Positions 19,321 through 60,954 of a stretch of 64,000 nt of DNA are shown one piece after another. Position 1 is the stretch's first letter, and each line of letters starts with the position of its first letter. The stretch is from the IMG/VR virus record IMGVR_UViG_3300004807_000018, positions 18,170-82,169 of that record; one strand, given 5' to 3'. Position numbers and translations under genes: made by a program. The DNA comes from a virus. The notes below the pieces were generated by a model that saw nothing but the letters and a program-made list of their open reading frames with translations, was not told the origin of the DNA and did no database searches.

Positions 19321-20745
19321 TTAGTCGTCTTGGTCCGCGAGCACTCCCTCGCCTGGACCGGCCAGTTGATTGCCATCGCCGTTGTCGACCATCGCCGTGG
19401 TCGGATCCTTTGGCGCTTCTGCTGCTTGCCGCTGAGTGCCTTCCGCTTGGCCCATGGGGCGCGTTCCCTTTGGCACCTGAATCTGGTCTCCGCCGTCGAC
19501 CTTGCCCATGCCGATCCTTGCGCGTCCCTCGTCGGGGGTAAGGGGAGGCACACCGCAGAGCACTGCGATTTCCTTGAGCAAGATGTCCTTGAGGGCCTCG
19601 ATCTTGGACTCGTCGTACATGATCACTTGGCCGTTTTTGCCAAGCTCAGGAATCAGGTTGCTTGTAAGCTGCCGAGCCCGCCTTCTGGCGTAGGGGATCA
19701 CGAACGAACGGAACGTTAGATCGATCGCGGCTTCGATCGACGCGCGATTGTTGGACTCTCTGAGCCCGGTGCCCATGCCAACCACGACTGGCTGAATGCC
19801 AAACACGGCGCAAAGCCTCTGCTCTGCTTTCCCGGTCGTGTATTCGAGCCCGAGGGACTTGGGATCAAACTGAAGCTGCCCGACCTCAAGCGGAATGTTC
19901 GAGACGAGAACCGACCCTTTGCCGTCGCGCGTGAGCTGCTGTCTAAACCGGTTTTCGAGTTGCTTTGCTTGACCAGGCCCAAACTCGAAGATCGGCTGGA
20001 AGCTGTCTTCCGCGGTGTAGTTGCTCGGATACTGTTTAGGTGTGATCAGCGCCGACGCGACTGCCCCGTTCGCAAGGATCGCCGCCTCGTGGCGGGCTGC
20101 CAGCATGTCCGATGCTAGTTCAGGGATCGCCGCGTAAAGCGGAGACATCCCGTAGACCGGCCAAACCGGATCCATCATGTACCGCATGTGCAGGATGTCG
20201 CACGGAGGAATGCGGTAGTAGCCGTTGACCGTGCTGACCCGGTACTCGGAAACGAACTCACCCGTTCCAGGCCAGGTGTAGGGATAGCACGAGTTTTCAG
20301 GAAGAAACTCAAGTGCGATCACCTTATTGGTGCGCGGATGCCTGTGCTTGTAGGCGTAGCTGTTGCCCCAAGCCATCTCCGTGAACACGGAAAGCTGGCT
20401 TAGGTCCGTGCCGTCGTACCACGGGTTTGGCCGCTCCAGGAGCACCGTGGCCGGATGGTGCTCGATGAGCTCGTACTTGTTGCCGCCAAGATCCCAATAC
20501 GTTTCGAGCGGGATTGCCTCGATCTGCCGAACCGCGAACGAGATGATGGAAAAGACGATCGACGAGTTGTAACGAAGGCTTGTTGCCTCGTTCCAGTCGA
20601 TTCCTCCGGCCAGGGTCTGCTGGTACTGCCCGAAGTAGGTGCCTGCTCCGTAAGAACCGCCCGTAATGCTTGCGACCGTGTTGCCACGCCTTGCCGCACT
20701 GACCAGCGCACTGGCGAACTGGCTGACCCTTTGTCCAATGCTCAT
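19321..20745 (-). CDS. Portal protein, HK97 family
   Basis: HP...LL.RPNP, GNSY, ILHMR, YGMSPL, LCAVFGI.P..VG, TPDEGR..IG motifs. Confidence 0.95.
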   Translation of the reverse strand: MSIGQRVSQFASALVSAARRGNTVASITGGSYGAGTYFGQYQQTLAGGIDWNEATSLRYNSSIVFSIISFAVRQIEAIPLETYWDLGGNKYELIEHHPATVLLERPNPWYDGTDLSQLSVFTEMAWGNSYAYKHRHPRTNKVIALEFLPENSCYPYTWPGTGEFVSEYRVSTVNGYYRIPPCDILHMRYMMDPVWPVYGMSPLYAAIPELASDMLAARHEAAILANGAVASALITPKQYPSNYTAEDSFQPIFEFGPGQAKQLENRFRQQLTRDGKGSVLVSNIPLEVGQLQFDPKSLGLEYTTGKAEQRLCAVFGIQPVVVGMGTGLRESNNRASIEAAIDLTFRSFVIPYARRRARQLTSNLIPELGKNGQVIMYDESKIEALKDILLKEIAVLCGVPPLTPDEGRARIGMGKVDGGDQIQVPKGTRPMGQAEGTQRQAAEAPKDPTTAMVDNGDGNQLAGPGEGVLADQDD

Positions 20746-20896: not shown

Positions 20897-22342
20897 TCAG
20901 TAGACGCCGATCTTCTTGCGGGTTGGTGCGGTGCGCTCAGCCATCGCGTCGGCCAAAGCGTCTACCCAGTCGTCGTTGCGTCCTCTCGGGAACGCGCGAA
21001 GTTCTTCAATGAAGTCTTTCGCGTACTTGGAGTTTAGTAGCTTCAAATTGCCAGCGTTGACCTGCGCTGCTGAGGGCTCGGCTCTTAGTTCCTTGTCTCC
21101 GGAGACAGGAAGCACGACCACGCTGTAACCAGCGTGCAGAGCAAGGAACTTCTGGGCCGACTCCTTGCCCGCTGCGCCTGGATCCTGAGGACCACGGATG
21201 CGCGAAGGCTTTCGAAGGTCGGCTTCCTGCCGGATGCGCCTGTTGCGCTTATTCGGCTCGTGCTGGAAGCGCACGACGTCCGCATAGAAGATCCCGTCTG
21301 AATCCGGCCCGAAAAGCTCGACACCAGCAGTCCAGTCTCCGTCGTCCTCTGTCGCGCCAAGGTCCCACGCAAGGCAGCTTTTAAGCCCTGCGGGTATCGC
21401 CTCGACGATCTCAATCTTGTCCGGATGGAATAGCGATCCTTCTGGAGGAGTCGGGTTGCCCTGGAACAAGGCTTCAAACTTATGGGCGCCCGCGTCCTTG
21501 AGCTGCTGAAGAATGAACTTCTTCGGTTTTTGCTCTGGCCACAGCGGCTCGCCGACTTCTCTGCCGAGAACGTCGCCTTCCACGGCAAGAGCCGGGAAGT
21601 TGATGACGGTCCAGCCGTGATCAGGCTGGGCGGTCAGCCGCCCAATGAGGTCGTCTTCGTGCCAGCGCGTGGCAATAATAACGACGATCGTGTCCGGCCA
21701 GAACCGCTGGACGATTGCGCCGGTGTACCACTCCCAAATGTTCTCCCGAATGGTTTCGGAAGAAGCTTCCTCCCAGCTCTTGATCGGGTCATCAATGATG
21801 ATCAGCCGGAGCCTAGGGATACCGGTAGGAGGCGTTCCAACACCCCGAACCGAGACCGTCCCGCCAGTGGTGAAGGACCACTCATCGAGCGCTGTCGCGT
21901 CCGAAGAGAGAATGCCACGCTCGTGCGCCAGGTCCCTTGCAGGTTTGCTAAGCTGCTTTTCGGCAAACCGCTGGTTGTATCCCGTGAGAAGCGCGTTCTC
22001 GCCCGGGAAGTGCTCGCCCCAGTAGACCGGCAAGCGTCGGGTGATCGTGTCAGACTTGGCGTGCTGCGGAGGCATCGAGAGGATGACCCGCTGCAGACGA
22101 CCCTCGATGATCTCTTGGACTACCTCCTCGCACAGCCAATCAATGTGGTGCGGAACGAGGTAGTAGCTGGGAATCGTGGTGTCGTACCACTTCCTGTAGG
22201 TTGGCCTTGTGCTAGCTTTCGCCAGAACCTTAGCCTGAATCTGCTCCTTGATCGGGATCCCGCGCCGGGCCGCTTCCGCGAGCCTCTCGGACAAAGGAAT
22301 CGCATTGAGGGGAATTCGCGAGCTCCTGCCAAATCGACTCAA
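20897..22342 (-). CDS. terL: Terminase large subunit
   Basis: MPPQHAKS (Walker A variant), IIIDDPIK (Walker B), TRWHEDDL, AWDLGA, FPRGRNDDWVDA. Start codon uncertain. Confidence 0.95.
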   Translation of the reverse strand: MSRFGRSSRIPLNAIPLSERLAEAARRGIPIKEQIQAKVLAKASTRPTYRKWYDTTIPSYYLVPHHIDWLCEEVVQEIIEGRLQRVILSMPPQHAKSDTITRRLPVYWGEHFPGENALLTGYNQRFAEKQLSKPARDLAHERGILSSDATALDEWSFTTGGTVSVRGVGTPPTGIPRLRLIIIDDPIKSWEEASSETIRENIWEWYTGAIVQRFWPDTIVVIIATRWHEDDLIGRLTAQPDHGWTVINFPALAVEGDVLGREVGEPLWPEQKPKKFILQQLKDAGAHKFEALFQGNPTPPEGSLFHPDKIEIVEAIPAGLKSCLAWDLGATEDDGDWTAGVELFGPDSDGIFYADVVRFQHEPNKRNRRIRQEADLRKPSRIRGPQDPGAAGKESAQKFLALHAGYSVVVLPVSGDKELRAEPSAAQVNAGNLKLLNSKYAKDFIEELRAFPRGRNDDWVDALADAMAERTAPTRKKIGVY

Positions 22343-22799
22343 TGAGAGCCTCGTCCGTTGTATCGTTTAGGGTCAAATCGACCTTGGAAGTGTTGGAGAA
22401 TTTGCCTCCCACGAGTTGGGCCGCTGTCTCGACTGCATTGAGCAGCAAAGCGTGGTCGCCAGCTTCCCTTGCCTTGTTGGCTATCCCTTGGATTTCGAGA
22501 AGTTGGCCCTCCAGCGTGGCAATCGGGATGATCTTGATGTCCTGCTCAAGGTGCTGCTTTCGCACACGCTCAAACCGCTCAAGGAGCACTTTTCGAGCCC
22601 TGGAACCGTTGACTTGAATGTCGAACTTGATCGCAGGGTTGTCGAAATTGAGGGCGCTGATTGAGGATCGGACTGGAGTCGTCGTTCCAGGGAATACCGA
22701 TTGCCAGGATTCACGAATGTCCTTTGCAGACTGAAACACCGCAAAGGCATCGACGATGTAGTGAAGCTGGCGCGTTGAAAAGCCGGGGCCTTTGCTCAT
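22230..22799 (-). CDS. Terminase small subunit (DUF2280-like)
   Basis: Upstream of TerL; IV...A.F, F...R..., IPIA and E.AA..VGG.F.N pattern. Confidence 0.7.
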   Translation of the reverse strand: MSKGPGFSTRQLHYIVDAFAVFQSAKDIRESWQSVFPGTTTPVRSSISALNFDNPAIKFDIQVNGSRARKVLLERFERVRKQHLEQDIKIIPIATLEGQLLEIQGIANKAREAGDHALLLNAVETAAQLVGGKFSNTSKVDLTLNDTTDEALIESIWQELANSPQCDSFVREARGSGPARDPDQGADSG

Positions 22800-23449
22800 T
22801 AGATCCGCGCACCGCAGCCGCAGTACGCCTCCAGTTCGCCTCGCTTAAATCTGGGAGGCCTATTTAGCGCGTCGCCAAACTCTGCAAGCTGTCCGTTCCA
22901 AGCGCCGTAGCGACGAACGACGCCGGCGAACTCTTCAATATCGTGAGCGCGAGTGCACCAGACAGGGCTACCGTTCCGAAGAACCGGCATGCCGTACTCG
23001 GTCATCTCTTGCCCGCAGTGGTAAAGCTCGTGCTCGATGACTGCGCAGCGGCTCACGATGTCCGCATCGTAGAACCACGGGGCATTAAGCGTAATCAGGA
23101 AGTCCGGCCAGTTGTCCTGCGGATCCCAGGATTCCCTGCGTGCCCAACTCTGGATCAGTTCTGTCGATCGCCCTTGCGACCACTTTGCAACCTGTCCTTG
23201 CGGGACTTCGGCCTGTCCGGCGAGGATCTTTCCCTTTTCTTTCGCGCCATAGCTTGCCCACACGAACAGAATCTTCGCTTCGAGCAAATGCTGGTGGTCT
23301 TCGTTGTAGTACTGCGGGACGTCGCCCGTGATGAACATCTCTTCGGCCCATCTCCGAACTTCGGGGGCAGGCTCGAAGTGAATGCCGGAGCTTAAAACCG
23401 AGGCAGGAATAACCGGGAACTCAAGCTCAGACCCGCTACGCTTAGCCAC
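22799..23449 (-). CDS. Putative phage metallopeptidase
   Basis: IEHELYHCG (HExxH) and HDIEEF.GVVRRYG. Confidence 0.85.
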   Translation of the reverse strand: MAKRSGSELEFPVIPASVLSSGIHFEPAPEVRRWAEEMFITGDVPQYYNEDHQHLLEAKILFVWASYGAKEKGKILAGQAEVPQGQVAKWSQGRSTELIQSWARRESWDPQDNWPDFLITLNAPWFYDADIVSRCAVIEHELYHCGQEMTEYGMPVLRNGSPVWCTRAHDIEEFAGVVRRYGAWNGQLAEFGDALNRPPRFKRGELEAYCGCGARI

Positions 23450-23458
23450 CTCGCACCT

Positions 23459-23680
23459 TTAGTCGTTGCGGCTTACGCTTTCTCGCGCAAAAAACATGAG
23501 CGCAATGCAAATCGACACGGTCGAGACAAGCAGTTCTTGCTTAATCGATGCTTGATCCAAAGATTGCCCCGAAATCATCCACAGAGCGCAGCAGATCAGC
23601 ACCGATATCCCAAAGCTGAGCAGCAGAAAACAGGCGACCATTCCGACAAACGCGAAACAGTCGCCCAGGAACTTCCACAT
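23459..23680 (-). CDS. Small two-TM membrane protein
   Basis: Two hydrophobic stretches in 73 aa. Confidence 0.5.
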   Translation of the reverse strand: MWKFLGDCFAFVGMVACFLLLSFGISVLICCALWMISGQSLDQASIKQELLVSTVSICIALMFFARESVSRND

Positions 23681-24156
23681 TAGAATCCCCAGCTTCCGCC
23701 GACGATCAGCCCCGCGTTCGTAAGCGAGAGCTGATTGATCTGGAATGCTTTCGAGAGGTCCGCTTTCTCGCCGATCCCGCCGAAGAGGGAGAAATTGGAA
23801 TTGAAGTGGTATCGAACAACACCAGCAAAACCAGCGACGGCGCTTTCGTCCTTGACGTCATAACCCCCGAATAGATCGAAACCGACCGTGAGATTCGGTA
23901 CTTGACCAAAATTGAATCCCAGAAAGGACCACCCTTTTGCCAGAGGAGCGTAACTCTTGACCTCGTTGAGTGCGATTACGGCATCGTGGCCGCGCTGGAT
24001 GAACTCAGCGCCAGACCACGGGCCAGCGAACGGGTTAGATGTCGGTGCGGTTGCTTGCAGGCTCACCGCAAGAACTGGCTTTAGGGTTGGGGCACTGTCC
24101 GCAAACGAGCAGGCAGAAAGCACGGCGAGAAGGGCAAGACTAAGGAAGTGTTTCAT
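23680..24156 (-). CDS. Exported beta-strand protein, outer-membrane-barrel-like
   Basis: Signal peptide MKHFLSLALLAVLSACSFA; alternating G/aromatic strands; terminal ...GGSWGF. Confidence 0.6.
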   Translation of the reverse strand: MKHFLSLALLAVLSACSFADSAPTLKPVLAVSLQATAPTSNPFAGPWSGAEFIQRGHDAVIALNEVKSYAPLAKGWSFLGFNFGQVPNLTVGFDLFGGYDVKDESAVAGFAGVVRYHFNSNFSLFGGIGEKADLSKAFQINQLSLTNAGLIVGGSWGF

Positions 24157-24424
24157 AGATGCTCCGCAGCTTTTCGAAGCTGCTTGGTAAACCGCGAAGG
24201 CTTTCGCCTGCGGCAATTCCTGGTCATGTCGATCGGCACGGACGGTTCTTTAGCGAGTGCAGAGCCTGGCAAGCGCCAAGTCGGGGCCTCTACGCTTGGG
24301 ATGCATTCACCGGAGACGACTTCTTGCCCCTGCAAGGCTGGGCATGTGCAGACCGACAACCGCCTGGTGATCGTGTCGGACATGCCATGCCGTGCGGGCA
24401 TCAAAACGAAGCTGCTTGGCCCCA

Positions 24425-24775
24425 TTAGGCGCTGCGAACGATCGACAGATCGGCAACGAACTCAAGGCCTGCGTACTCGGCAAGGTCCGCGCCACGGCGA
24501 ACAAGGTAGGAGGCCTTCGAAAGGTCGATCGCCTCGACGAGATCGGCGGGAAGACCCTTGACGTTGTCGGTGATCGTCAGAGCGAGTTGCTCAGCGTCCT
24601 TTGCGCCCTGAACCTTGGCGGTCGCCTCGACGTTGATGCCGCTTCCGACTTCGAGGGAAACGACCTGATCGGGAAAGCTGGTGAGGGTTACCGGGTGACT
24701 GGCAAGGTGAAACACCTTGAGCTTGGTGTTTCCTTCGACGACGTACAGATCAGCGGTTGCGGTGTAGCTTGACAT
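24425..24775 (-). CDS. Hypothetical protein
   Basis: 116-aa ORF with AAGGA SD. Confidence 0.6.
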   Translation of the reverse strand: MSSYTATADLYVVEGNTKLKVFHLASHPVTLTSFPDQVVSLEVGSGINVEATAKVQGAKDAEQLALTITDNVKGLPADLVEAIDLSKASYLVRRGADLAEYAGLEFVADLSIVRSA

Positions 24776-25253
24776 GTTTGTTCCTTGGGGCTAGGCCCCG
24801 AATCCTAAAATCGTTTGGATGGCTAACGTCTGCGCCTGCCCGGTGACGCTGAGTCTCGAGCCTGCGCAATCTGTTCGATCTGCTTGTTGAGCGCCGAGAT
24901 CTCGGCCCTTGGTGAAATCAGATCGCCTTCTGCTTTGAGATCCGCATAGGGCTTGAGTGCACGCACAAGGACCACCGCTTCATACAGCGGGTCTTTGTGC
25001 CGAGTGCCGACGCAAAGCGAGCGAGACCACGCGGGATCACACTGGCGCGGATACTTGTCAAATTCACCCTCCGGCATGGGGGCGCATCTGACACGCTTGT
25101 CGATGACTTCGTTCATTGAGCGCGAGTCCTGATTGAATTGACTGTGGGCAGCTTTTGCGCTAGTCGCCGTAGCGCCGAACAACGTCCCCTAAACGTAGCT
25201 GCGAGTCGGTGGTCTCAGGGGACAATCTCCCACATGGGCCACAGTCAAACTGG

Positions 25254-25726
25254 TTAGAGAATGTCTCCCGTGAGCATTTCAGCAGGCAAATAGGCAGTCA
25301 TAAAGCGCATGCCTTCCTCGATCTTGACGGCCTGCTCGTCCTTGACAAACGTGCATTCAAGGGGCACACCGCGAACGTTCGTTGACCGAATGATAAACAG
25401 TCCCAACTCGTAGATCGGGCCATCTTTGCCCATTTGGATCTTTTCTGGAAGGCGCTTGCTTGCCATGGTCAACTGGCCTCGGCTGGAAGACAGATTTCGA
25501 CCTGACCGAAAACTTTGGCCGTGACGGGTTTGTTTTGGTCTTTAAGGAACAAGCAAGGAACCTGCGTCTTTGCCCCTGCAAGCAGGATCAACACTTCGAC
25601 CCACCCTTCTTCGTCGTTTGCAGACTTCGTTATGTGGGTAACGTCTTGGCCGTTGACTTTGACAACGATATCCCTGTGCTTGCCATTCGGAAACTCTGCC
25701 CGTACGGTTTTAGCGTCAATAAACAT
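25254..25726 (-). CDS. Two small hypothetical genes (25254..25466, 25469..25726)
   Basis: Coupled ORFs; both begin within the same 16-nt junction sequence. Confidence 0.55.
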
Positions 25727-25728
25727 GG

Positions 25729-26784
25729 TCAACTGGCCTTTTTGTGGCTGGTCTTGATGTGCGCGTGAGTCTCGTGTGTAGACATGCCCGGAGCCGCGAT
25801 CACAAGGCCCATTCTTGAAAGAGCATTGTGCAGACGTGGGTTCTGGAACCCTACGCAACCGCCGCCACGCTTGCGCTGCGAGACCATTCGGTTGATGTCA
25901 CCCACCAAAACCCAGGGGCTTGCAGCGTCGGCCGAGATTGCCCACTTCGCGTGATCGTGCGCTTCAGAGAAGGTGTAGGGCATGCCAACAGGCTGCATGC
26001 TCACGAACTTAATGTCAGCAACGCGGTGAATGCCGTCCTTGTCCGCGGTGGGAGCGATCTCACCACGGATCCACGTCTCGACGTCAAGGTCGACGCCAAG
26101 AGCACTGCCCACGCCGTCGTTCCAGAAATCGCCTCCCCACTCGCGGTTCTTGGCGAACAACTTGAACGGCATGCCGCCCAGCGTGGTGAGATCCAGCACG
26201 TCAAACGCGGGGTGCGGATGAGGCGTGAGATCCTTATGCCAAAGATCAAAAAGCGATTGTGGAACGTCCACGGTCACGGGCTCGACGCCGCCAGCAGAGT
26301 AAACCTGCGGCTCTTGGTGGCACAGCATCTGAGCAGCGATCAGCCCAAGAGTGTCCAGCGAGAGCGAAAGGCACAGGAACGTCTGCCCGTAAATCGGAGT
26401 TGGTGCAGCCTTCCCGCCAGGCACCGGAAACTTAGGCCACGAGTGAACCAGCAGGAACCCGGTCTTGCTCGCCGTATCCCAGCAGATCACGCCCTTGGTG
26501 TGGCCTAGCGATTCGTCGTCCGGGCCACCAGGCGTGCCGTCTGGCTTCTCGTCGTTGTACAGGATAAAGCTGGACCCAGTCACCCCAACTTGCGCGAGTG
26601 TCTCGTGAACTGCGCCCGAACCCTGGTCAAGCCTGTGAGGCGAAGCCGAAGGCACATCGCTTAGCGAGTCTGCATAGGCATACTCGTAGCCGCTGGCTCC
26701 GTTTTCACCCGCTAGCCGAGCGACCTTGTAGGCGAAAAACCAGTCGACAGGCTGGCCAGATTCATTGAGTGCTTGAATAGGCAT
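25729..26784 (-). CDS. Deoxyribonuclease II family (PLD superfamily) nuclease
   Basis: G.PVDWFFAYK, YND, GHTKGV, LVHSWPKFP, YGQTFLCLS, DHAKWAIS, GDINRMVSQRKRGGG; both HxK motifs intact. Confidence 0.9.
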   Translation of the reverse strand: MPIQALNESGQPVDWFFAYKVARLAGENGASGYEYAYADSLSDVPSASPHRLDQGSGAVHETLAQVGVTGSSFILYNDEKPDGTPGGPDDESLGHTKGVICWDTASKTGFLLVHSWPKFPVPGGKAAPTPIYGQTFLCLSLSLDTLGLIAAQMLCHQEPQVYSAGGVEPVTVDVPQSLFDLWHKDLTPHPHPAFDVLDLTTLGGMPFKLFAKNREWGGDFWNDGVGSALGVDLDVETWIRGEIAPTADKDGIHRVADIKFVSMQPVGMPYTFSEAHDHAKWAISADAASPWVLVGDINRMVSQRKRGGGCVGFQNPRLHNALSRMGLVIAAPGMSTHETHAHIKTSHKKAS

Positions 26785-27151
26785 GGCGGTTCACAAGGCA
26801 AATCTCGGGAGCAAAACCCAGAACAGAACGAAGCTCGTTACACTGCAGCCGACGAGGAACCCAATTACGAACGTGACCCAAGGGCATTTGAGGTCGAGTC
26901 GGAACATGGCATCACGGGTTCCAATCCTCTCGCGCACGAGTCGCAGCGCCGACGCCTGTTGTAATACTTGCGGCCACCCCAAACACGGATCTTCTGCTCG
27001 TGTCCGCATTCAAGTTCCTCAAGATCCGGCTCAGGCACGTTCTGGAACCTGGGGCTCACGTTGATGTGCCGCCCGTGCTCGTCTCCGATGATCGATGGGT
27101 TTTCAAGCCAGAACGAAGTGGCCGGGCAGTCAAACGGTCTCGATCCTTCCA

Positions 27152-27784
27152 CTAGCCAGATGTAGGCTGTGACTCGTCGGAGAACTTGAGCCATGAGAAA
27201 CCGAGGATCCAGCGCAAAGCCGCAACGCAAAACATGAGCACTGCCGCAAACAAGAAGCCGTCCTTCTCCATCGCGCGTCCTCGTAGGACGCTGAACACGC
27301 AGTAGGTTGCTAGGCCAGCGTAGACGTCGCCGCACAACTCGTTTGCGTCCATTCTGGATTTGCAAAATGTGCAGCCGCCTATCTCGTGCGTGCATCGCTC
27401 TCGCGGAGTGCGGACGCCCCAGATAAGCAGGATGCCGAGGATAAACGCAAAGTTGCACCAGAACGCATCCCAAAACTCGCTGGTTCTACCAACCAGGCTG
27501 AGCACAAATGCATCGAGCTTGGCCGCGACCACGGAGCACACCACAATCACGAGTGCGGTGAGCGCTTGCGCAAGGAGCGTCTTCATGGTCTGTTAGGCGC
27601 TTGGCCCCTTCCGAAACTGAACGAACGTCGGGATGAGCGTTGAGGCGAACGAGATCATTGCCGTCCAGAACTCAAGGTGCGCCGAGTCAGCTCGCGCCAC
27701 CTGGTGCAGGATCCGGCTCAGGAGCCACACCACAAGCGCGAAAGCAATGCACTTGAGCACGTAGCCAAAGAAGTGCGCGTTCAC
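27152..27784 (-). CDS. Two membrane proteins (27152..27586, 27593..27784); holin/antiholin candidates
   Basis: Multiple hydrophobic segments; lysis-region position. Confidence 0.45.
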
Positions 27785-27787
27785 TGC

Positions 27788-28000
27788 TTACTTCTGCCTT
27801 CCCTCGAGGATTCCGAGGATGCGCTCAACCTTGCCGATAAGGTCCTGAAACAGCGTCGTCGACTCCCGTTGCCCAGATTCCAACCGCTCAATGCGCTCGC
27901 CATGCGATTGCTGTTTTGCCCACATACGGACGAGCACTGCTCCACCCGAAACGGCGCAGCCTGCAAGGAAAACGCTGATGGTTTGTTCTGACTGTGTCAT
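27788..28000 (-). CDS. Holin-like single-TM plus coiled-coil protein
   Basis: N-terminal TM followed by HGERIERLE...; near the endolysin. Confidence 0.5.
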   Translation of the reverse strand: MTQSEQTISVFLAGCAVSGGAVLVRMWAKQQSHGERIERLESGQRESTTLFQDLIGKVERILGILEGRQK

Positions 28001-28213
28001 GGTTCTGGATCGCAGCAAATTTTGTCAATCGCGACTGGCGGGCGAAGAATCTGGACGGTCTCATGACCGATAAACTTTTGATTGGAGTCGAGCTCACTTT
28101 CGGCAACAATTGCGTACCGGCTAGTTCCGGGCTCGCGAAGCACCGCAAAGCCGAACCCATTGCGCTCGACTGCCGCGCGGGCCTCTCGAATCGCAACGTC
28201 CTTGTCCATGGAC

Positions 28214-28833
28214 TCACGCAGTTGGCAGCCAAAGGCCAGCCTGATTAGGATCGGAAGCAGCCGCACCGACGAGCGTGTCGACGTCGACATCGAGCCCCGC
28301 CACAGTTGTGGTCTGGCCCTGGAGAATGACTTCCTTTGCTTCGGCCTTGGATCCAGACCAGCCCATCGACTGGCTCAGCCAACCATAGTGAGCAATCCCG
28401 GCTCCGATCACCTTGTCCATCACCAGGCCAGAGCCGTAGACGGTCACGAGGTAACCCGCTGAAGACAGCTCGTTGTGAACTGCTTTGAAGTAGGCCAGGA
28501 CAGCAGGCAGATCGGACTGAGGCGCGTCGTAGTCCACCGCAAAGCCAATAGCCTTAGCTTTTGGCAGCTTGAGTGCTTGAGCGACCTTGACGGCTTCCCA
28601 GCGTGGACTTTCCCGATCGCAGCAGACATCTCAGAGGCGGTGCCAGCCACCTCCCACACCAGTCCAACCCAAACGCCAAAGCGAGCGCACTCACGGATCT
28701 CAGAGGCGGTGACCCGTTTGTTCGGAAAGCTCGCAGTGTTGGGGCTGACGTAGCGAATAATGCCGGAGACGCCGAGGCCCTTGAGCTTCGCGACCTTGCC
28801 GATGACTGAATTCGGGGTGTCAATGAGCTTCAT
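28214..28833 (-). pseudogene. Endolysin, DUF1906/GH25-like glycoside hydrolase, split by a 1-nt frameshift near 28598
   Basis: 5' half GIIRYVS...K.VTASE...VGLVWE; 3' half in the -1 frame IGFAVDYD...YF..V.....GY.VTVYGS...WLSQS.GW...VDVD. The halves join if GCT GGG AAG has one more G. Confidence 0.8.
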
Positions 28834-29187
28834 GTGAACCTCGATGCTCGATGCAAATTGGTGCTCTCGGAAACAGGCGGCTGATAGGGCGACCATGTAG
28901 GCCCGTCCGCCTGCTCCAAAGCCACGAGTAATACGCCCGTGGCACACGTCCGACTTTCTTGTTGGCGCTCAGATAGCGTGAGCGTGCCGAAACCATCCTG
29001 TTTTCCCCATGTCAGGCCACGGTTACTCACCGCACGGGGTATTCGAAACGCCCCAGGGATCGTAATGTAGGAATTGATTCTCGCGCCAGGGCTCACGTGA
29101 GATTTCCCTTCACGTTAAAAAGACCTCTTGTTTAAGAGATCCCAGACCGGAGGGTTTGCAACGTGTCTAGTGAGACGCGAGATAGCT

Positions 29188-29264
29188 TGGGAGCAGGGGC
29201 TGGATTCGAACCAGCGAATAGATGGTTATGAGCCATCCGTGATGGACCGCTACACGACCCTGCT
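29188..29264 (-). tRNA. tRNA with CAT anticodon (Met or Ile2), encoded CCA
   Basis: AGCAGGG/CCCTGCT acceptor stem; GATGG-CTCATAA-CCATC anticodon arm; GCTGG-TTCGAAT-CCAGC T arm; C-CCA end. Confidence 0.9.
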
Positions 29265-29476
29265 GCAAATCGGACGCAATATTCCCTGCAAATATGATCA
29301 CACACGCAAAGTGAAAAATCAAGGGCGTTTATAGCTTAGATATAGCTTTGCTTGCCTTTGCGCTCATTATTGCGCCCAAGTGAGCAATTTATACACCTGT
29401 CGCATTCATATAGATTGCTGCAATTGAGTGCTTCGCCACGAATATGGTGTCATTTTGATATCAATTTGATATATAG

Positions 29477-40340: not shown

Positions 40341-41471
40341 TCACGCTGGAACCCCGTTGCGCTGGTGACGGGCCCACCCTATGCGCTCCCGAGCGATTTC
40401 CATGGCGATGGGATTGCTGTCGCAGCCAGCGAAATTGACCCCCTCAAGCACGGCTGCCACCCCAGTGGTTCCGCTGCCAAGGAAGGGGTCGACGATCAGT
40501 GCACCAGGGGGGGCAACGAGACGGATAAGCCAGCGCATGAGCGCGATCGGTTTCACCGTTGGCCAGGGGTTCTTGGCGCTTTCCTTCGTCCCCTCAGACT
40601 GAAAGCCGCCCATCCCACCATGGCCCCATTTCAGAAGCCTTTCCGGGAGCTGCTCGCATCCGAGGTCTCGCTCGCGCCGGGACGCCTTAGCGCAGTAAAA
40701 GAACCGCGAAGCTCCGCCAGCGTCTTCTAGTCTCAGTGATGAGCATTCCTTCTGGCCCTCGAACGGCCTGGAGGTGTTCTTGTGCTTCGCGGACGCTCGT
40801 CTTCTTGGGTTCGCGCCGGACTTCAGAACGCCCGTCTGCTCATCAAGCATCGCCGCAGCGGTCTCGTCGAGCGCCACATTAGCAGGCCACCGCCCAATGT
40901 CACTTGCCGAACCTCCACCCGTGCGAATATCGGTGACGGATCCGGTCTCGCGGGTACCTGAATGGCCTCGATCTCTGGAGCAGTTCGCGGAGTACTGCGC
41001 GTCCGACACTGGGATCCGAGCAGCGTCGATGTGCAACGCTCCACAGCCGTGACCTAGAAGGTTTTCCCGAACCGTGCCGGCGAGTGGCCGACGCGCAACG
41101 GTGATTGGCTCCCATCCAGGTTTCAACGCAGTGCCCCATCCAAGCCACCGGCCATGCTGGTTGTGCGACTTGGGATAGCCCTGCCCGTACAGCCATGTGA
41201 TGTGGTCAAGAACCTCGAAACCCGCATCCTCGATCCTGCACACCTGACGGTGGAAGGTCCGGGTACCACCGAACGCGAGCAGGTAGCCGCCTGGCTTTAG
41301 GGTCTGCAGCGCTTCGGCCCAAACCTCGACGCTTGGAATCTGCGCGTCCCACTCGCTGTCCATGAACGAGAGCCCGTAAGGCGGATCGGTCACGATTGCG
41401 TGAGCCGAGTTGGGCGTCAGGGAGCTCAAAAACGACAAGGCATCCTGGTCACGCAGAATTACATCAGGCAT
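40341..41471 (-). CDS. DNA methyltransferase, N6-adenine/N4-cytosine, beta class
   Basis: VTDPPYG near the N-terminus; PTVKP..LMRWL; VDPFLGSGTTG. Confidence 0.92.
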   Translation of the reverse strand: MPDVILRDQDALSFLSSLTPNSAHAIVTDPPYGLSFMDSEWDAQIPSVEVWAEALQTLKPGGYLLAFGGTRTFHRQVCRIEDAGFEVLDHITWLYGQGYPKSHNQHGRWLGWGTALKPGWEPITVARRPLAGTVRENLLGHGCGALHIDAARIPVSDAQYSANCSRDRGHSGTRETGSVTDIRTGGGSASDIGRWPANVALDETAAAMLDEQTGVLKSGANPRRRASAKHKNTSRPFEGQKECSSLRLEDAGGASRFFYCAKASRRERDLGCEQLPERLLKWGHGGMGGFQSEGTKESAKNPWPTVKPIALMRWLIRLVAPPGALIVDPFLGSGTTGVAAVLEGVNFAGCDSNPIAMEIARERIGWARHQRNGVPA

Positions 41472-42693
41472 GCTTGGCCTCCCAGATGTCGAGGGCTGGC
41501 GTGACACGCGAGCACCTGGCCCGAATCATCTCGCAATACTGTGGATTGGCTTCGATCCCCCAGGCCTCGTGACCTAACTCGATCGCTTGCTCGAGTGTCG
41601 TTCCCGATCCCGCGAAGAGATCCAAAACCCGTCCGTGGGGGGGGGTAGTCGCCAGAATGCATGTGCGCGGGATCTCTCTCGGGAACGTCGCGAAGTGAGC
41701 GCCTTTGTAGGGGCTCGTGCTGATTTCCCACACCGTGCGCTTGTTGCGCGTACCGGTTGAAAAGGTGTCCTTGCGGTCTGGCCTGTGGCTTGCGTTGGTA
41801 TGGCCCGGGACTAGGACATGAAGCTGCTTGCCCGACTCTCTCTTGAAGGAATCGCGAGACCGCTTGGCATAGCCGGATAGCCCCGACTTGGTTCTGAACT
41901 GCCCTTCGATGTCCAGCCCGTACTTACCGTGATCCACGTTTCCGGGAGGTCCTCCGACAGCCTTTTCTGCGATGGCCGCGCAGTCGTAGAAGTATCTGCT
42001 CGACTTCGTCAGATGAAAAATGTATTCGTGAGCCCGGGTGCAACGATCCTTGACACTCTCAGGAAGGGGCGCAGGCTTTGCCCAAATGATGTCGTTGCGG
42101 ATGATCCACCCTCGCTCATGGAGTGCAAGTGCCACTCTCCACGGAATCCCGATCAGGCTCTTCTTGGGAATGCCTTTGAGTGGCATGCGGTTAGGCTGCT
42201 GGTCAGGACCGCAATGAGCCCAACGGTCTCCTTGATGTCCACCTCCTGCATGCTTGCCAATGCGGCCGGCGCCGGTGGCATACGAGTCACCGAGATTCAG
42301 CCAGACCGATCCGTCTTTGCGCAGGACCCGCCAGACTTCGTCGAAGATGCTGACCAGATGCTCAACGTAGAGGTTTGGATGTGGCTCAAGTCCAAGACAT
42401 CCGAGCCAGCCGCCGCACTTACAGCAGACTGCCGACTTACTGACTTTGCGCGTCGCGGAGTGGACGTTCTTGGTGCATCCGACCATCGACGTGCTCCCGT
42501 TCTTCGCAGGCAGCACCGTCTCTTCGAACTCATGGGCGCAATCAGGGTCACCGCCCCAGAACGATGGCTGTATTCCATAGTTTCTGAGTCCGTAGTAAGG
42601 AGGGCTGGTCACCACGGTGTGGAAGAAGTTGTCCGGCAGGCTCTTCACCTGCTCTTGCGCAAACCCCGGAAGGATGTGGAGGCGGTCATTCAT
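41464..42693 (-). CDS. DNA methyltransferase, N4-cytosine-like, beta class
   Basis: VTSPPYY, WLNLGDSY, HFATFP, VLDLFAGSGTT. Confidence 0.92.
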   Translation of the reverse strand: MNDRLHILPGFAQEQVKSLPDNFFHTVVTSPPYYGLRNYGIQPSFWGGDPDCAHEFEETVLPAKNGSTSMVGCTKNVHSATRKVSKSAVCCKCGGWLGCLGLEPHPNLYVEHLVSIFDEVWRVLRKDGSVWLNLGDSYATGAGRIGKHAGGGHQGDRWAHCGPDQQPNRMPLKGIPKKSLIGIPWRVALALHERGWIIRNDIIWAKPAPLPESVKDRCTRAHEYIFHLTKSSRYFYDCAAIAEKAVGGPPGNVDHGKYGLDIEGQFRTKSGLSGYAKRSRDSFKRESGKQLHVLVPGHTNASHRPDRKDTFSTGTRNKRTVWEISTSPYKGAHFATFPREIPRTCILATTPPHGRVLDLFAGSGTTLEQAIELGHEAWGIEANPQYCEMIRARCSRVTPALDIWEAKHA

Positions 42694-43430
42694 GCCGCAC
42701 CGCCAAAGTCGAAGCACATCTGCCCGTTAGTCGCCTTCGTTGGGGTCAGCGAGTCCAGCAGAGCGCTGATGTTCGAGACAATTTCTGTGATGGCCGAACG
42801 CCTGGGCGCTTGCGCCAGGCCCCAGAAAGGGTTCACCCTGGTTGCCCACGTTTCAGTGGTCAGCGCGTTGCCATGAATCACCGTGGCAGGGATGCCCCAG
42901 AGCGTCAGGTTTACGTAACACATGTCGCATGCCAGGGAGCTGATGTCTGTGCAAACCGCTCTCATGTTCAGCGGGCTGTAGCCGCGATCCACAAGTGCCT
43001 CTGCGATCGAAAGCACCATGGCTCCGGATCCGCACGCAGCCTCCTCGACGTCCAGTGGCCGGTCATCGGGGATATCTTTCACAGTGAGTTGGGCCATCAC
43101 CCGGCAGATGTCCATTGGGGTGTAGAACTCACCGCGGTGCGCGGCATCGCTCCTGGAACTCCACTCCATGTGCACCGGCCCGAGGACGTCCGTGAACGGT
43201 CTCTCCTGCATCTCGGAAATCAGTGCGCCGAGCGCGACGGCAAATTCCTGCATGTGCTCGGGCTGCCACCGCTTGGCTTCCTCGAGGTAGTCGGCTTCCC
43301 TCCGCCCCGCCGAGGCAGCGCATGCCGCGAGGTAAACGAACGCGCGAAACACTTCGTGCGAATAGCGTCCGCTCGCCGTAGCGATGCGCTCCAAGACCTT
43401 CGTTGTTGAGGGTAAGTCCTGTGGCTTCAC
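42690..43430 (-). CDS. Short HsdM-like / N-6 DNA methylase-family protein
   Basis: GEFYTP, EAACGSG, DIS, HGNAL; ends before a canonical NPPF/Y motif. Confidence 0.75.
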   Translation of the reverse strand: MKPQDLPSTTKVLERIATASGRYSHEVFRAFVYLAACAASAGRREADYLEEAKRWQPEHMQEFAVALGALISEMQERPFTDVLGPVHMEWSSRSDAAHRGEFYTPMDICRVMAQLTVKDIPDDRPLDVEEAACGSGAMVLSIAEALVDRGYSPLNMRAVCTDISSLACDMCYVNLTLWGIPATVIHGNALTTETWATRVNPFWGLAQAPRRSAITEIVSNISALLDSLTPTKATNGQMCFDFGGAA

Positions 43431-45892
43431 GCTGCGACTGCCTCCGCATCGAGCCCGAACGCTTTGGCGAGCGCGTCGTAAATTGCCTCAGATGGTCTTG
43501 CCATCATGTGGGCACAGTTGGCGCGGATCATCGCCCGAGCTGGCCACGGGCTGACCGAGTTGCCGCACATGTGGACCTGCTCTGTCGCAGTCAGCTTTCG
43601 GCCGTCAGCACCGCGGTCAATCACGTAAGTGTCTGGGAACCCCTGGCAGCGGAAAAGCTCGCGAGGCGTGAGCATTCGCATGCGGATGTCACTCACGACG
43701 TACCTAGTCCAGCCGATCCACTTCTCGACAAACTGGCCTTTTGTGGATCCCGGGAACCACTTTTCCAGCAGAGCAGCGACGAGGGCAGCCTTACCGTTTC
43801 CGGTGCCCGTAATCGTGGGTGACGGTAACTGGAGCGAGGCCCCGACCGAATTGCCGAAGTCACGCTGCATGAACGCACATGTCACGTTGTGCCGGGCACC
43901 ATCCGCCACGATGGTGTGAAGGGGATCTTTCCCTGATGAACATGGGTTCCAGCCCGTGTTGTTGTGATGGAAGTAGACGCCAGCAAGCATCTGCTGAGAT
44001 CCAGTCGTCAGAGTGCTCGATGGATCGTGCGCCAGGGCCCCTTGATGCCCTCGGCTCTCTGTCAGGATCGTGCCGAGCGGATCACGCAAGGATCGACCTT
44101 TGGCACTGTAGAAGCCACCAAAAGCGTGGTCTAGCCAGACTCCAACCACGGAATGGTTGGCCCCCTTGCCCGTGATCGTCGAAACCGGCGCTCCAAGGTG
44201 CTTGCCGTTGCCTGAATTGTCGATCGCATACCCGCCGACGTTCGTCGCGAGGAACGATGCGACCACAGATGCATGGTCCCTCGTCGTGACTGTGGGCAAT
44301 GGTCGGTCAATCCGCGCCGCTTGGGGAGTGCCATAGTACAAATCAAGGCTCATCGCCGTCAGGGCAAACCTATTCTCTGTGCTTTGGGTCCTCAGAGGCT
44401 CGCCGATCTCGCATGATCGAGGAGCGCCACCGTAGTACTGCGAAAGAAACGCTGAGGCGAGCCCTCCGCCATTGCCATCGCAGACCACCGCAGGATACGG
44501 ATCACCGATCGAGCGCGTCCGCATCGCTTGCCCAGGCCTTTCCCCGTATCGAGGAATGAACCAGGACATCGACAGGGCAAGATCGTTCGATCCCGTGACC
44601 GAAGCCAGTGGACGAGCGACTTCCTTGCTTCCGTGCCCCCACCTCTTCGATCGGGCTCCGCCCTCTGAGTGAGCGGTATGGACAAAACAAGGGGACGCGA
44701 TAACCGTGTCAGCCTTAGCCGTGATCGTCGCAAATGGTTCCTCAAGAGAACGTTCGGGCGACTGCCCAGCCCGCCCGCCGCAGCCCGCTGTGTAAGAGGC
44801 AGAAGCCACCGCAAAGCCATTACTCGTGGTGACAGTGCGCAGCGGATCCGAAACGCTCCAATGGTTTGGATCTCTGCCCGTGGTCTTCGAGTTGGCCACG
44901 TTCGCGATGATCGGAGAAGCGACCGCGATTTCACCGCGGTGAGCGGAGGTGATTGTGGGGAACGGCTCGTGAGTCGCTGGGCAACGGCGCGAACCCTGAT
45001 GAGTGATCGGAACAAAGAATGGAGATGCAGATTCGAGAACGTGAATCTTTAGCCCTCGAGCTAGGCGTCCGAACGTGTTGTCAGCCAAAGGCCTGATCGG
45101 GCACTGTTTGCCGTGCTCTTTCGCCCATGCTTTCGCCTCGTCCTTCGTGGCAAACACGGAGCACATCGGGAGCGACCAGTCGATGCACTCGGCTGCAGTC
45201 CGCCAAGGCTTGAGCGCTCCGCTACGTACGGCCGCAGACTTCGGATCTCCGTGTGTGGGTTCGGGCCAAACGATCTGCTCCCCATCGCAGCGAGCGATGC
45301 AGAACCAGCGCTTTCGGATGGTTGGAGCGCCATAGTCACAGGCCCTGAGTTCGCGCCACTCAACCTTGTATCCTTCCTGGCGCAGAGAGCGAACGAACTT
45401 CTTAAAGGTTCTGCCCGCCCGCCCCTTATGAGGTCTAAGGTTGCCGTCCTTTCCACGAAGAGGGCCCCACTTCACGATTTCCTCGACGTTTTCCATCATG
45501 ATTACGCGAGGCTTGACCGTTGCGGCCCACCACTTGACAACCCAAGCGAGCGAACGCCGACGCCTCAAGTTGTCTCGAATAGGCTTTCCGCCACGGGCTT
45601 TTGAGAAAAACGTGCAATCGGGGCTCGCCCACAATAAGCCCACAGGACGCCCGCCGCTGGCTTCTCTTGGGCTCACCTCAAACACGTCAGCCTTGTAGTG
45701 CTCCGTGAGTGGATGGTTGGCCTGGTGCATCGCGACGGCAGACGCGTCGTGATTGACAGCTACGTCTACGGGCTGGCCAGTGGCCATTTCATAGGCCAAG
45801 CTCGACCCTCCGCCACCCGCGAAGAGCACCACGCAAATCTCACGGAACAAGTCAGGTGGATTGGTCAGCGATCGCTCAAAAAGGGACGACAT
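43427..45892 (-). CDS. C5-cytosine DNA methyltransferase with expanded repetitive variable region
   Basis: LFAGGGG, WASPDC, MENV.E, R.RWF, RMLTPREL...QGFP, GNSV. Confidence 0.95.
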   Translation of the reverse strand: MSSLFERSLTNPPDLFREICVVLFAGGGGSSLAYEMATGQPVDVAVNHDASAVAMHQANHPLTEHYKADVFEVSPREASGGRPVGLLWASPDCTFFSKARGGKPIRDNLRRRRSLAWVVKWWAATVKPRVIMMENVEEIVKWGPLRGKDGNLRPHKGRAGRTFKKFVRSLRQEGYKVEWRELRACDYGAPTIRKRWFCIARCDGEQIVWPEPTHGDPKSAAVRSGALKPWRTAAECIDWSLPMCSVFATKDEAKAWAKEHGKQCPIRPLADNTFGRLARGLKIHVLESASPFFVPITHQGSRRCPATHEPFPTITSAHRGEIAVASPIIANVANSKTTGRDPNHWSVSDPLRTVTTSNGFAVASASYTAGCGGRAGQSPERSLEEPFATITAKADTVIASPCFVHTAHSEGGARSKRWGHGSKEVARPLASVTGSNDLALSMSWFIPRYGERPGQAMRTRSIGDPYPAVVCDGNGGGLASAFLSQYYGGAPRSCEIGEPLRTQSTENRFALTAMSLDLYYGTPQAARIDRPLPTVTTRDHASVVASFLATNVGGYAIDNSGNGKHLGAPVSTITGKGANHSVVGVWLDHAFGGFYSAKGRSLRDPLGTILTESRGHQGALAHDPSSTLTTGSQQMLAGVYFHHNNTGWNPCSSGKDPLHTIVADGARHNVTCAFMQRDFGNSVGASLQLPSPTITGTGNGKAALVAALLEKWFPGSTKGQFVEKWIGWTRYVVSDIRMRMLTPRELFRCQGFPDTYVIDRGADGRKLTATEQVHMCGNSVSPWPARAMIRANCAHMMARPSEAIYDALAKAFGLDAEAVAA

Positions 45893-54632: not shown

Positions 54633-55156
54633 GCGTAGATCTGTCACGGCACGAAGGCCACACGCCCGGCAAGTGGCACTGGACTGGCGATGCCGATCTG
54701 CATTCGCTGCACCTCGGTTCTGACGCATCACGCAGGCCGGTAGTCCTGGCGTTCAGACGCTGGGGCATGGCCCAGGCACAGCCCATATTCAACGTGGGAA
54801 TGCGTCTGGAAGACGCTGCAGACCTCCTGCAGTTTGCGGTTGGCGACCAAAGCGTTCGAGGCTACCAGTCCGCCAAGCGAGACGATTCGGTTTACCGCTA
54901 CACGATCGCGGCGATAGACCACCCGGACGCAAGGCTGATCGAAGATGCTCCACTGCTGAGGGCCGAACTGGTCGCGTTGAGGGAGGAGTACCGGGTGCTC
55001 CACGAAGCGCTGACGAAGCTTGTATTCCACGTCGATTCTGCACTTCCAGCACTTCGCGCTTATCCAGGCACTTTGCCTGAAGCGCAGACCCTGAAATACC
55101 GCGCCAGGCAGGCTTGCGAGGCTGCAGACGAATCCCTGAGGAGGATCAAAGGCTAA
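54629..55156 (+). CDS. Hypothetical protein (HTPG.W...DARLI..AP type)
   Basis: Common phage motif pair. Confidence 0.6.
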   Translation: MSVDLSRHEGHTPGKWHWTGDADLHSLHLGSDASRRPVVLAFRRWGMAQAQPIFNVGMRLEDAADLLQFAVGDQSVRGYQSAKRDDSVYRYTIAAIDHPDARLIEDAPLLRAELVALREEYRVLHEALTKLVFHVDSALPALRAYPGTLPEAQTLKYRARQACEAADESLRRIKG

Positions 55157-59366: not shown

Positions 59367-59765
59367 TTGGGTTCGGTGCCTCCACACGTCGAGGTGCTTG
59401 CGCTTGACCCTGCTGGGGTCAAGCGGGCTCTTTCGTTGCGGTCTGCTGAAGAGGCGCGTAAACTATGGCTCGATCCGACGTTTCCGGGTATCGAGGATGG
59501 TTCGCGCCAACTGGTAGACGCTGACGACCTCAGGGACTGGTGGAAACGGCGAAAGGATCAACTTCGAGCGAAGCGCCATGCCTCCGAAAAAGCCGTCCAA
59601 GCCCCGGAAGCCGAACCTCTCAAGGAAGAACCGCAAAGAGATCAAGCGGTTGGTAACGCTGGCGGACGGCTCGACTATTCGCAAGTCATATTACGGCGAG
59701 ACGGAACAAGAAGCGGAGTCAAAGTGGCGCGAGGAGACAGGGCAGCTTCCGCTACAAGGCGATGA
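59367..59765 (+). CDS. Excisionase-like HTH protein
   Basis: FP.I..G.R.LV...DL.DW pattern; immediately upstream of and overlapping int. Confidence 0.55.
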   Translation: MGSVPPHVEVLALDPAGVKRALSLRSAEEARKLWLDPTFPGIEDGSRQLVDADDLRDWWKRRKDQLRAKRHASEKAVQAPEAEPLKEEPQRDQAVGNAGGRLDYSQVILRRDGTRSGVKVARGDRAASATRR

Positions 59766-60954
59766 CCCAGGCGATATACCCGGCTCGTTCGCTTGGGTCT
59801 TCTTCAACAAGCTGTTTCCCCTCAAAGTTGGGCTTCGAGATCGATCCATCGAAGACATCCAAACCACCCTTCGGCACGTGCTTCCGCTTCTCGGCACCAC
59901 TCAAGTTTCCCAAATCGACGCAGTCGTAGTCGCCACAACCTGCAACGCGATCGGCTCGAAGATGATCCTCAAGAACCCACGGGCCAAAGACCGCGAGAAG
60001 CATCCTGAAAAGTGGGTCCCCATCAGCGCACGGACCGTCAACAAGTGCAGAGCTCTCATCCTTGAGGTGATGGGAGTGGCCGCAGAAGAGTTTCCACAAA
60101 AGGTCAGGCCCATCACCTCAAAGAGGATCAAGACAAAGAAAGATCCCCCAAAGCGCATTACGATCTACACGCCTCAAATGCTGCGGAGGCTCTATCTGCA
60201 CTCACAGGGACGCGTCTGCGCTCCAGCAGTACTGCTCTATGGATTCTGCGGGCTTCGGCTTCGCGAAGGAGCCGCAGCACATTCTTCATCGCTTACGGAA
60301 AGCGGCAACCTCCGTGTGGAGACGCAGCAAGTCAAAGACAAAAAGCAGACCACGAAAGACTTGAAGTCGGCCAGCAGCTACCGTGTGATACCTCTACCTA
60401 GTGGCGTCCACGAAGAGATGAAGAAGTTCGCGGATCCACCCGGTCCCTTGATTCGTTCGCTCGAGCGAAAGAACAATCTAGGAGGGGACCACGTGCGCGC
60501 CGCGGGCATTGCAGCCTCTCTTACAAGGGCGATGGTTTCCGCTGGACTTCCTGTCGTGAGCACGCACAAGTTACGCCATGCGTTCAGCACATGGCTCGAA
60601 TCGAACGGCTGTCCTCGCAGCGTCCGAAGGGAACTCATGGGGCACGGCGAATCTTCGATCGACGACACGTACAATCACCCCGGCGATGCGGTCATTCGCA
60701 TGTGGCTTGACCGGCTTTGGCAAGCCTCGATGGAACCCGACACCCAGACCTACGCAACTCCGACACGCAAGAGACGCAAGATGTCTCGCCCAGCCGCAGA
60801 AAACCCACGCGCAAAACTCTCTCCAGACCAGGTCAAGGAAATCCGCAACCGTATCGGAAACGAGACAATTGGGTCGATTGCGCGGGCCTTCGGAGTCAGC
60901 CCAAAGGCTATCAGAAACATCCGAGACGGCAAGGCTTGGACCAATTTGTCGTAA
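59578..60954 (+). CDS. int: Tyrosine integrase with extra C-terminal HTH
   Basis: RKSYYG.TE.EA arm-binding domain; GLRLRE, K, HKLRH, LMGH and Y catalytic motifs; AKLS..QV.EIR......IARAFGVS...I.NIR.GKAW tail. Confidence 0.93.
   Translation: MPPKKPSKPRKPNLSRKNRKEIKRLVTLADGSTIRKSYYGETEQEAESKWREETGQLPLQGDDPGDIPGSFAWVFFNKLFPLKVGLRDRSIEDIQTTLRHVLPLLGTTQVSQIDAVVVATTCNAIGSKMILKNPRAKDREKHPEKWVPISARTVNKCRALILEVMGVAAEEFPQKVRPITSKRIKTKKDPPKRITIYTPQMLRRLYLHSQGRVCAPAVLLYGFCGLRLREGAAAHSSSLTESGNLRVETQQVKDKKQTTKDLKSASSYRVIPLPSGVHEEMKKFADPPGPLIRSLERKNNLGGDHVRAAGIAASLTRAMVSAGLPVVSTHKLRHAFSTWLESNGCPRSVRRELMGHGESSIDDTYNHPGDAVIRMWLDRLWQASMEPDTQTYATPTRKRRKMSRPAAENPRAKLSPDQVKEIRNRIGNETIGSIARAFGVSPKAIRNIRDGKAWTNLS

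Follow-up and report, generated by a model that had tools for sequence, protein, structure and literature searches.

I found that a temperate freshwater phage carries, between its lysis genes and its terminase genes, a gene predicted from its sequence to encode a catalytically competent endonuclease of the DNase II type. Apparently, this is the first time that a genuine DNase II has been seen in a genuine phage. The gene lies in a stretch of 64,000 nucleotides (hereafter, the window), which is the whole stretch of DNA that was analysed and forms part (bases 18170-82169) of an IMG/VR virus record of 82,169 bp that is 88% complete according to CheckV. In the record, the DNase II is located mid-contig, at 43979-44938. 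The arrangement of a lysis cassette followed by a DNase II gene recurs in diverged relatives.

Identification of the DNase II protein

The gene and its two catalytic motifs have the following positions in the window.

25729..26784, (-), DNase II gene (351 aa, ATG start; Pfam PF03265, 5I3E match, AF2 model)
26491..26505, (-), first HxK motif GHTKG (H95, K97), from the translation; invariant in alignment A1; equivalent to H100/K102 of BthDNase II
25942..25956, (-), second HxK motif DHAKW (H278, K280), from the translation; invariant in alignment A1; equivalent to H279/K281 of BthDNase II

A match to the DNase_II profile had been set beforehand as the test of the assignment, and it held: the 351-aa product matches Pfam PF03265 with an E value of 6.5e-71 and 239.6 bits against a cut-off of 23 bits, and DNase_II is the sole Pfam family matched. 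Residues 6-325 align with positions 3-319 of the 326 profile positions, and a PF03265 profile search of the IMG/VR record gave 239.3 bits. The DNase II of Burkholderia thailandensis (BthDNase II; PDB 5I3E/5UNB) is about 55% identical to the phage protein (E 3.4e-93) over residues 3-350 with no large gaps. Based on this full-length identity to 5I3E, the phage enzyme may form a homodimeric U-shaped clamp. The AlphaFold2 model, which is a prediction and not a solved structure, has a mean pLDDT of 76 and a pTM of 0.82, and Foldseek matched it to 5i3e_B with an E value of 1.1e-34 and a TM score of 0.84. The modelled fold is that of DNase II and the PLD-like proteins.

Both catalytic HxK sites and the rest of the DNase II motif set had been read by the initial annotation from the DNA letters alone, and PF03265, 5I3E, and A1 all agree with that reading. 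H95, K97, D103, H278, K280, and R306 are all invariant in A1, an alignment of 19 sequences; D103 and R306 correspond to D108 and R305 of BthDNase II. The most probable candidate for the Asp residue of the second motif is D286, which does not vary in A2, an alignment of 8 sequences from the clade of the phage protein (see below), although a two-residue insertion makes its exact correspondence to D288 of BthDNase II uncertain. Across these 8 sequences, 101 columns are invariant. In BthDNase II, H100 was proposed as the residue of the covalent intermediate and H279 as the water activator (PMC5449587). BthDNase II has an acid pH optimum, does not require a metal, and leaves 3′-phosphate products (PMC5449587). 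By analogy, the chemistry of the phage enzyme can be taken from the family: metal independence, a His-phosphate intermediate, and 3′-phosphate ends. The initial annotation was also right about the lack of a signal peptide. The phage protein begins at the conserved core, and neither a hydropathy scan nor the alignments revealed an N-terminal hydrophobic segment.

Thus far the phage protein resembles BthDNase II (5I3E/5UNB; Varela-Ramirez et al. 2017, PMC5449587), which is likewise full-length, has the HxK motifs and the Asp and Arg residues, and has no signal peptide. Unlike BthDNase II, it is carried by a phage, is encoded beside lysis genes, and belongs to a separate clade. Unlike the eukaryotic lysosomal DNase II, it lacks an N-terminal secretion signal, as do the bacterial members. 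Nuc of plasmid pKM101 and BfiI are comparable as PLD-superfamily enzymes of mobile elements with EDTA-resistant, HKD-type phosphodiesterase chemistry. Nuc and BfiI have one HKD motif per subunit and belong to Pfam families other than DNase_II. The fold relationship of DNase II to PLD was stated previously (PMC5449587).

The phage genome and the lysis cassette

The window contains the following features relevant to the DNase II gene.

19321..20745, (-), portal protein (phrog_2662, phrog_12)
20897..22342, (-), terminase large subunit, TerL (phrog_38, E 1.8e-69; Terminase_6C)
22799..23449, (-), phage metallopeptidase-family protein (PF18894, E 1.7e-30; phrog_513)
23680..24156, (-), lipoprotein/outer-membrane-like accessory protein (signal peptide, LSAC lipobox, C-terminal GGSWGF)
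25469..25726, (-), 85-aa ORF, starting 2 nt after the DNase II stop codon
26791..27009, (-), small membrane-protein ORF (TM residues 48-66), ending 6 nt before the DNase II start codon
27152..27784, (-), two small membrane proteins (63 aa; 144 aa with 3 TM helices), from a hydropathy scan
27788..28018, (-), 76-aa protein with one TM helix (residues 14-32) and a coiled-coil tail, candidate Rz-like spanin
28214..28947, (-), endolysin homologue (PF08924, Rv2525c-like glycoside hydrolase), both halves matching PF08924
29188..29264, (-), tRNA-Met (CAT), found with ARAGORN, with which the minus-strand lysis/late block begins
40341-45892, three DNA methyltransferases
45893-46606, HNH gene
40341-46606 and 55114-56337 of the window, and additionally L142:4477-5793, DNA-modification set
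59578..60954, (+), tyrosine integrase (phrog_1, E 6.9e-26; PF00589)

The minus-strand block runs from the tRNA-Met through the endolysin, the spanin and holin candidates, the DNase II, and small ORFs to the terminase and the head genes. Downstream of the DNase II on the same strand are the lipoprotein-like gene, the phage metallopeptidase, TerL, the portal protein, and the major head protein. On the other side, past a divergent intergenic region, the genes for DnaB, the three DNA methyltransferases, the HNH protein, SbcC-like, RecT-like, and Dda-like proteins, and the tyrosine integrase are found, and the rest of the contig encodes a helicase, an exonuclease, and a PAPS-reductase/DUF3440 protein. 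The presence of the integrase indicates that the phage is temperate. The tRNA-Met (CAT) adjoins the divergent intergenic region (29265-29476). The DNA-modification set is unusually large; it comprises two N6/N4 methyltransferases, an 821-aa C5 methyltransferase, the adjacent HNH endonuclease, a DUF5131 protein, and the PAPS-reductase/DUF3440 protein. Past the integrase, there are three minus-strand ORFs (61857-63891), one of which has a sulfotransferase-like domain (62732-63361); these ORFs may belong to the phage as cargo or may mark where host DNA starts.

A 26,930-nt Logan contig, assembled independently and probably from the source run, covers the whole of 24000-29300 with no substitutions and one inserted base. 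Thus, the linkage of the DNase II gene to phage genes is not peculiar to one assembler. The sequencing runs that contain the phage are labelled as freshwater metagenomes, and no RNA run is listed among them; in three of them (X2-X4), the stretch is covered only by short contigs of low depth. The relatives found by the portal protein are all metagenomic. The best cultured match of TerL is a Microcystis phage, which at 45% identity is too distant for naming the host.

The initial annotation had placed the DNase II between the lysis genes and the terminase, and the gene assignments agree, with the endolysin homologue at 28214-28947, the membrane proteins at 27152-28018, and TerL at 20897-22342. 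The endolysin homologue is split in the window into two ORFs (28444-28947 and 28214-28537). A metagenomic relative, L002, has an intact endolysin homologue of 228 aa, which scores 84.8 bits against PF08924 and matches phrog_13480 "endolysin" with an E value of 1e-18. A tblastn search with this homologue located a frame change between 28597 and 28630 of the window. In the contigs of three runs, one of them the probable source run, one more G is present behind 28598, and with this base the two ORFs become one gene of about 230 aa. Thus, the split is an error of the record and does not indicate a pseudogene. A broken endolysin in a defective prophage was considered and rejected, since the contigs of the three runs point to the omission of one base in the record.

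In L002, the ORF at the position of the 76-aa ORF matches phrog_7686 "Rz-like spanin" with an E value of 7e-5, and the 76-aa ORF of the window is a candidate for the same function. The 63-aa and 144-aa membrane proteins have no family match in Pfam or PHROG and are holin candidates. For the 85-aa ORF at 25469-25726, family searches also gave no match. In run X2, there is a contig in which 25463 is followed directly by 25724, so that this ORF is skipped. Thus, as far as a single low-depth contig can tell, the ORF is strain-variable and is not an obligate partner of the DNase II. Among the genes tested, the lipoprotein-like gene at 23680-24156 stands out by its GC3, which is the lowest (0.60), and by its codon use, which deviates most; this suggests that it is a recently acquired moron. 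Its product weakly resembles (E 2e-4) a signal-peptide protein at the same relative position downstream of the DNase II in L002. A scan for promoters and terminators gave site counts no higher than chance, as judged with shuffled sequence. It may reasonably be supposed that the DNase II gene is co-transcribed with the lysis/late block.

Rarity among phages and viruses

The initial annotation did not know DNase II as a standard gene of tailed phages, and the PHROG, phage-record, IMG/VR, and BFVD searches all support this statement. In PHROGs v4, there was no match for the DNase II of the window (E <= 0.001) or for its L002 homologue (E <= 0.01), and tblastn against 50,697 phage records found nothing at E <= 1e-3. 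Pattern scans of 2.9 million IMG/VR contigs, for which the protein alone and then alignment A1 served as the query, revealed no further DNase II; these scans rest on a few peptide patterns, and the absence is not strict. In BFVD, the sole significant structural match was the fowlpox virus protein FPV032 "DNase II" (Q9J5H0) with an E value of 4.8e-13. FPV032 is virus-borne like the phage enzyme and shares 29% identity with it over 243 columns, but it belongs to an animal virus, is shorter (232 aa), and is a distant relative with no link to phages. Among 72,556 plasmids, only two have a member of the DNase II family, and both are Burkholderia megaplasmids. PADLOC-DB 2.0 had no match at E <= 0.01 for the DNase II and nine neighbouring ORFs. 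A phage DNase II was not described in any paper retrieved by full-text literature searches.

I also searched for related phages by their head genes. A scan with the single portal sequence gave no match, while a search with the portal alignment A3 found relatives at 25-46% identity, none of which has a DNase II gene. IMG/VR phages whose portal, capsid, and TerL proteins are 37-50% identical to those of the window have neither a DNase II nor a homologue of the endolysin at 28214-28947 within 10 kb. Thus, the DNase II belongs to the accessory genes of a narrow group of phages.

Phylogeny and conserved linkage

The phage DNase II is a singleton at 90% identity, and its best relative is 62% identical. 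In a search of 1.84 billion cluster representatives, matches at E <= 0.001 numbered 1,791, of which 171 reached E <= 1e-30. A maximum-likelihood tree of 132 rows (a quick LG+G4 tree) groups the phage protein with nine other sequences (P0002-P0007, P0116, L002, and L018), and this clade of 10 has an SH-aLRT support of 97. All members of the clade are metagenomic, and it contains no genome-derived row. Under a site-heterogeneous model (a quick mixture-model tree of 43 rows), the support of the clade is 100 and its stem length is 0.48. Its sequences carry two additional residues behind the second HxK motif and lack the Lys-rich C-terminal tail of many bacterial members.

The gene context was informative in the window, in L002, and in the partial locus L040, which is not in the trees; L018 is too short. 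The DNase II proteins of L002, a member of the clade, and L040 are 57% and 60% identical, respectively, to that of the window, and both loci repeat the order of endolysin, spanin, and DNase II. The homologous endolysin and Rz-like spanin lie about 1.7 kb upstream of the DNase II on the same strand. The DNase II gene of the window has a GC content of 0.595 and a GC3 of 0.69, equal to those of the phage core genes, and its codon use is also alike. Thus, the gene shows no sign of a recent arrival.

Bacterial homologues

DNase II was described in the initial annotation as mainly eukaryotic with a patchy distribution in bacteria. The patchiness was confirmed, but the spread among bacteria is far broader than "mainly eukaryotic" would imply: a genome scan found DNase II in at least 143 of 185,579 species representatives, a lower bound that depends on peptide patterns. 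The best 80 of the 143 loci (L062-L141) come from at least 10 phyla, including Bacteroidota, Acidobacteriota, Verrucomicrobiota, Pseudomonadota, Ignavibacteriota, and Myxococcota, and none exceeds 52% identity to the phage protein. The bacterial DNase II clades are deep and well supported, and they extend far beyond the single Burkholderia lineage of PMC5449587, whose acquisition of DNase II from a eukaryote was discussed there.

Of the 77 bacterial loci in which both flanks extend for at least 3 kb, 26 have the DNase II gene within a same-strand xanthine-dehydrogenase/phosphoesterase cluster. The cluster encodes a fused xanthine dehydrogenase (XDH) of about 1,500 aa, a protein of about 500 aa, a PF04185 phosphoesterase, and XdhC; the gene for the phosphoesterase, which has no signal peptide, lies directly downstream of the DNase II gene. 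Examples are L118:3809-13648 (Flavobacterium aestuarii), L015, L085, L108, L110, and L111. This cluster, for which no description was found in the literature searched, looks like a nucleic-acid/purine catabolic operon. The DNase II proteins of such operons (L118, L015) are 46-52% identical to the phage protein and also lack a signal peptide. In contrast to these bacterial genes, the DNase II genes of the window and its relatives with an informative context have no XDH, PF04185, or XdhC gene beside them and follow an endolysin/spanin cassette instead.

Possible roles of the phage DNase II

The likeliest role, to which I would give an even chance, is that of degrading host DNA in bulk when the cell lyses or afterwards. 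The initial annotation had likewise suggested that host or extracellular DNA is degraded at lysis, which is plausible. The strand, spacing, and position of the gene in the minus-strand lysis/late block suggest that the DNase II is most likely made late, and the enzyme would stay in the cytoplasm, lacking a secretion signal. At neutral pH, no activity was visible for BthDNase II, which is the sole bacterial member of the family that has been characterised. If the phage enzyme is similarly silent, replicating phage DNA would be spared until the envelope fails. The host chromosome would be cut non-specifically at the end of the lytic cycle, either while the de-energised cell is dying or, once the lysis proteins have freed the enzyme, in the lysate. 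In this way, viscous, virion-trapping DNA would be cleared, and nucleotides might be freed. I infer this timing, substrate, pH behaviour, and benefit for the phage enzyme.

Breakdown at lysis is favoured by the operon-like packing of the gene, with ORF gaps of 6 nt upstream and 2 nt downstream, and by the conserved tie to the endolysin/spanin cassette in L002 and L040. The DNase genes of Streptococcus pyogenes prophages also adjoin the lysis module. Their products are secreted, metal-dependent enzymes with signal peptides, a fold unrelated to DNase II, and a role in animal infection. Spd1 and its relatives thus resemble the phage DNase II as accessory DNases of temperate phages, whereas the enzyme of the freshwater phage belongs to the DNase II family and has no signal peptide. 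These prophage-encoded DNases, such as Spd1 (bioRxiv 10.1101/2020.05.17.095000 = PMC7538557), provide a precedent for the lysis role. The main weakness is the freshwater habitat: if its pH is near neutral, an enzyme with an acid optimum would be weak outside the cell as well. In addition, 3′-phosphate products are not directly reusable, and phages with related portal and capsid genes manage without a DNase II. Phage enzymes that degrade host DNA are classically encoded by early genes. The lipoprotein-like moron in the same region makes it possible that the DNase II is instead expressed from the prophage.

Alternatively, the host chromosome may be degraded in the living infected cell for shutdown of the host and for nucleotide pools, while the heavily modified phage DNA is spared. 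The phage does encode three DNA methyltransferases (40341-45892), the PAPS-reductase/DUF3440 protein, and the DUF5131 protein, and the apparently cytoplasmic catabolic operons of the bacterial homologues (26 of the 77 loci) suggest that the family can work in the cytoplasm. However, the DNase II gene belongs to the late/lysis block rather than to the early genes, the phage copy has no catabolic partner gene of this kind beside it, and BthDNase II lacked visible activity at neutral pH. To my knowledge, there is also no evidence that DNase II discriminates methylated DNA. Degradation in the living cell is therefore unlikely.

It is rather unlikely that the DNase II is a moron which, expressed from the prophage, helps the host by making DNA available as a phosphorus or nitrogen source or by forming a barrier to superinfection or transformation. 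Such a benefit would fit a temperate phage (integrase, 59578-60954), the nutritional look of the bacterial homologues, the variation of gene content near the DNase II between strains, and the presence of a lipoprotein/outer-membrane-protein-like gene with deviant codon use, which also lies between the lysis genes and the terminase. However, the DNase II gene itself has the codon use of phage core genes, its own promoter or terminator was not detectable, and the gaps to the flanking ORFs are just 2-6 nt. Without a signal peptide, the enzyme could not reach external DNA from a living cell, and the PADLOC search gave no match.

The DNase II might also be a passenger that the phage acquired from a bacterium and has yet to lose, and that plays no part in its life cycle; this would explain why phages with related head modules, and all catalogued phages searched, lack the gene. 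This is improbable, since the catalytic residues are all intact, the base composition has equilibrated with the phage, the arrangement of lysis genes and DNase II is also present in divergent relatives at 57-60% identity, and the proteins form a separate long-stemmed clade (SH-aLRT 97 and 100).

The initial annotation had also raised a packaging-associated role, in which the DNase II replaces the HNH proteins adjacent to terminases; its sole point is that the gene is within about 3.4 kb of the terminase genes, and it is extremely improbable, because five to seven ORFs lie between the DNase II and TerS/TerL, TerL has its own RNaseH-like nuclease domain, an HNH gene is present elsewhere (45893-46606), related phages with homologous TerL, portal, and capsid proteins have no DNase II, and DNase II is non-specific and leaves 3′-phosphate ends (PMC5449587). 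Unlike the terminase-associated HNH nucleases, the phage DNase II has no HNH match and is several ORFs away from TerS/TerL. The idea of an HNH-like packaging nuclease is thus not supported by the genome.

Returning to the breakdown of host DNA at lysis, a more specific version is quite unlikely but may be formulated: a small phage-borne DNase II lineage would provide a lysis-coupled nuclease that is made late and is silent at cytoplasmic pH, or that spares the multiply modified DNA of the phage itself. In the pH-dependent case, the holin would collapse the membrane potential, the cell interior would take the pH of an acidic or humic habitat, and the DNase II would be switched on. If true, this would be a new, metal-independent phage route to liquefying host DNA at release.

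Implications

DNase II is usually viewed as a lysosomal enzyme of animals, and the few bacterial cases have been ascribed to transfer from eukaryotes. The wide spread found here over many bacterial phyla, together with the purine/nucleotide operons, bears on the origin of DNase II and on its non-lysosomal function, and the direction of the old DNase II transfer deserves a second look. Phages are a plausible vehicle for the patchy spread of the gene. If the phage enzyme has the metal-free, EDTA-tolerant activity expected by analogy, it could serve as a reagent or as an anti-biofilm enzyme. The enzyme is conventional, and phage-borne DNases are already known; it is the carrier of the DNase II that is new. 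A temperate phage and its close relatives carry a DNase II tied to the lysis cassette, which adds a type of nuclease to the phage toolkit.
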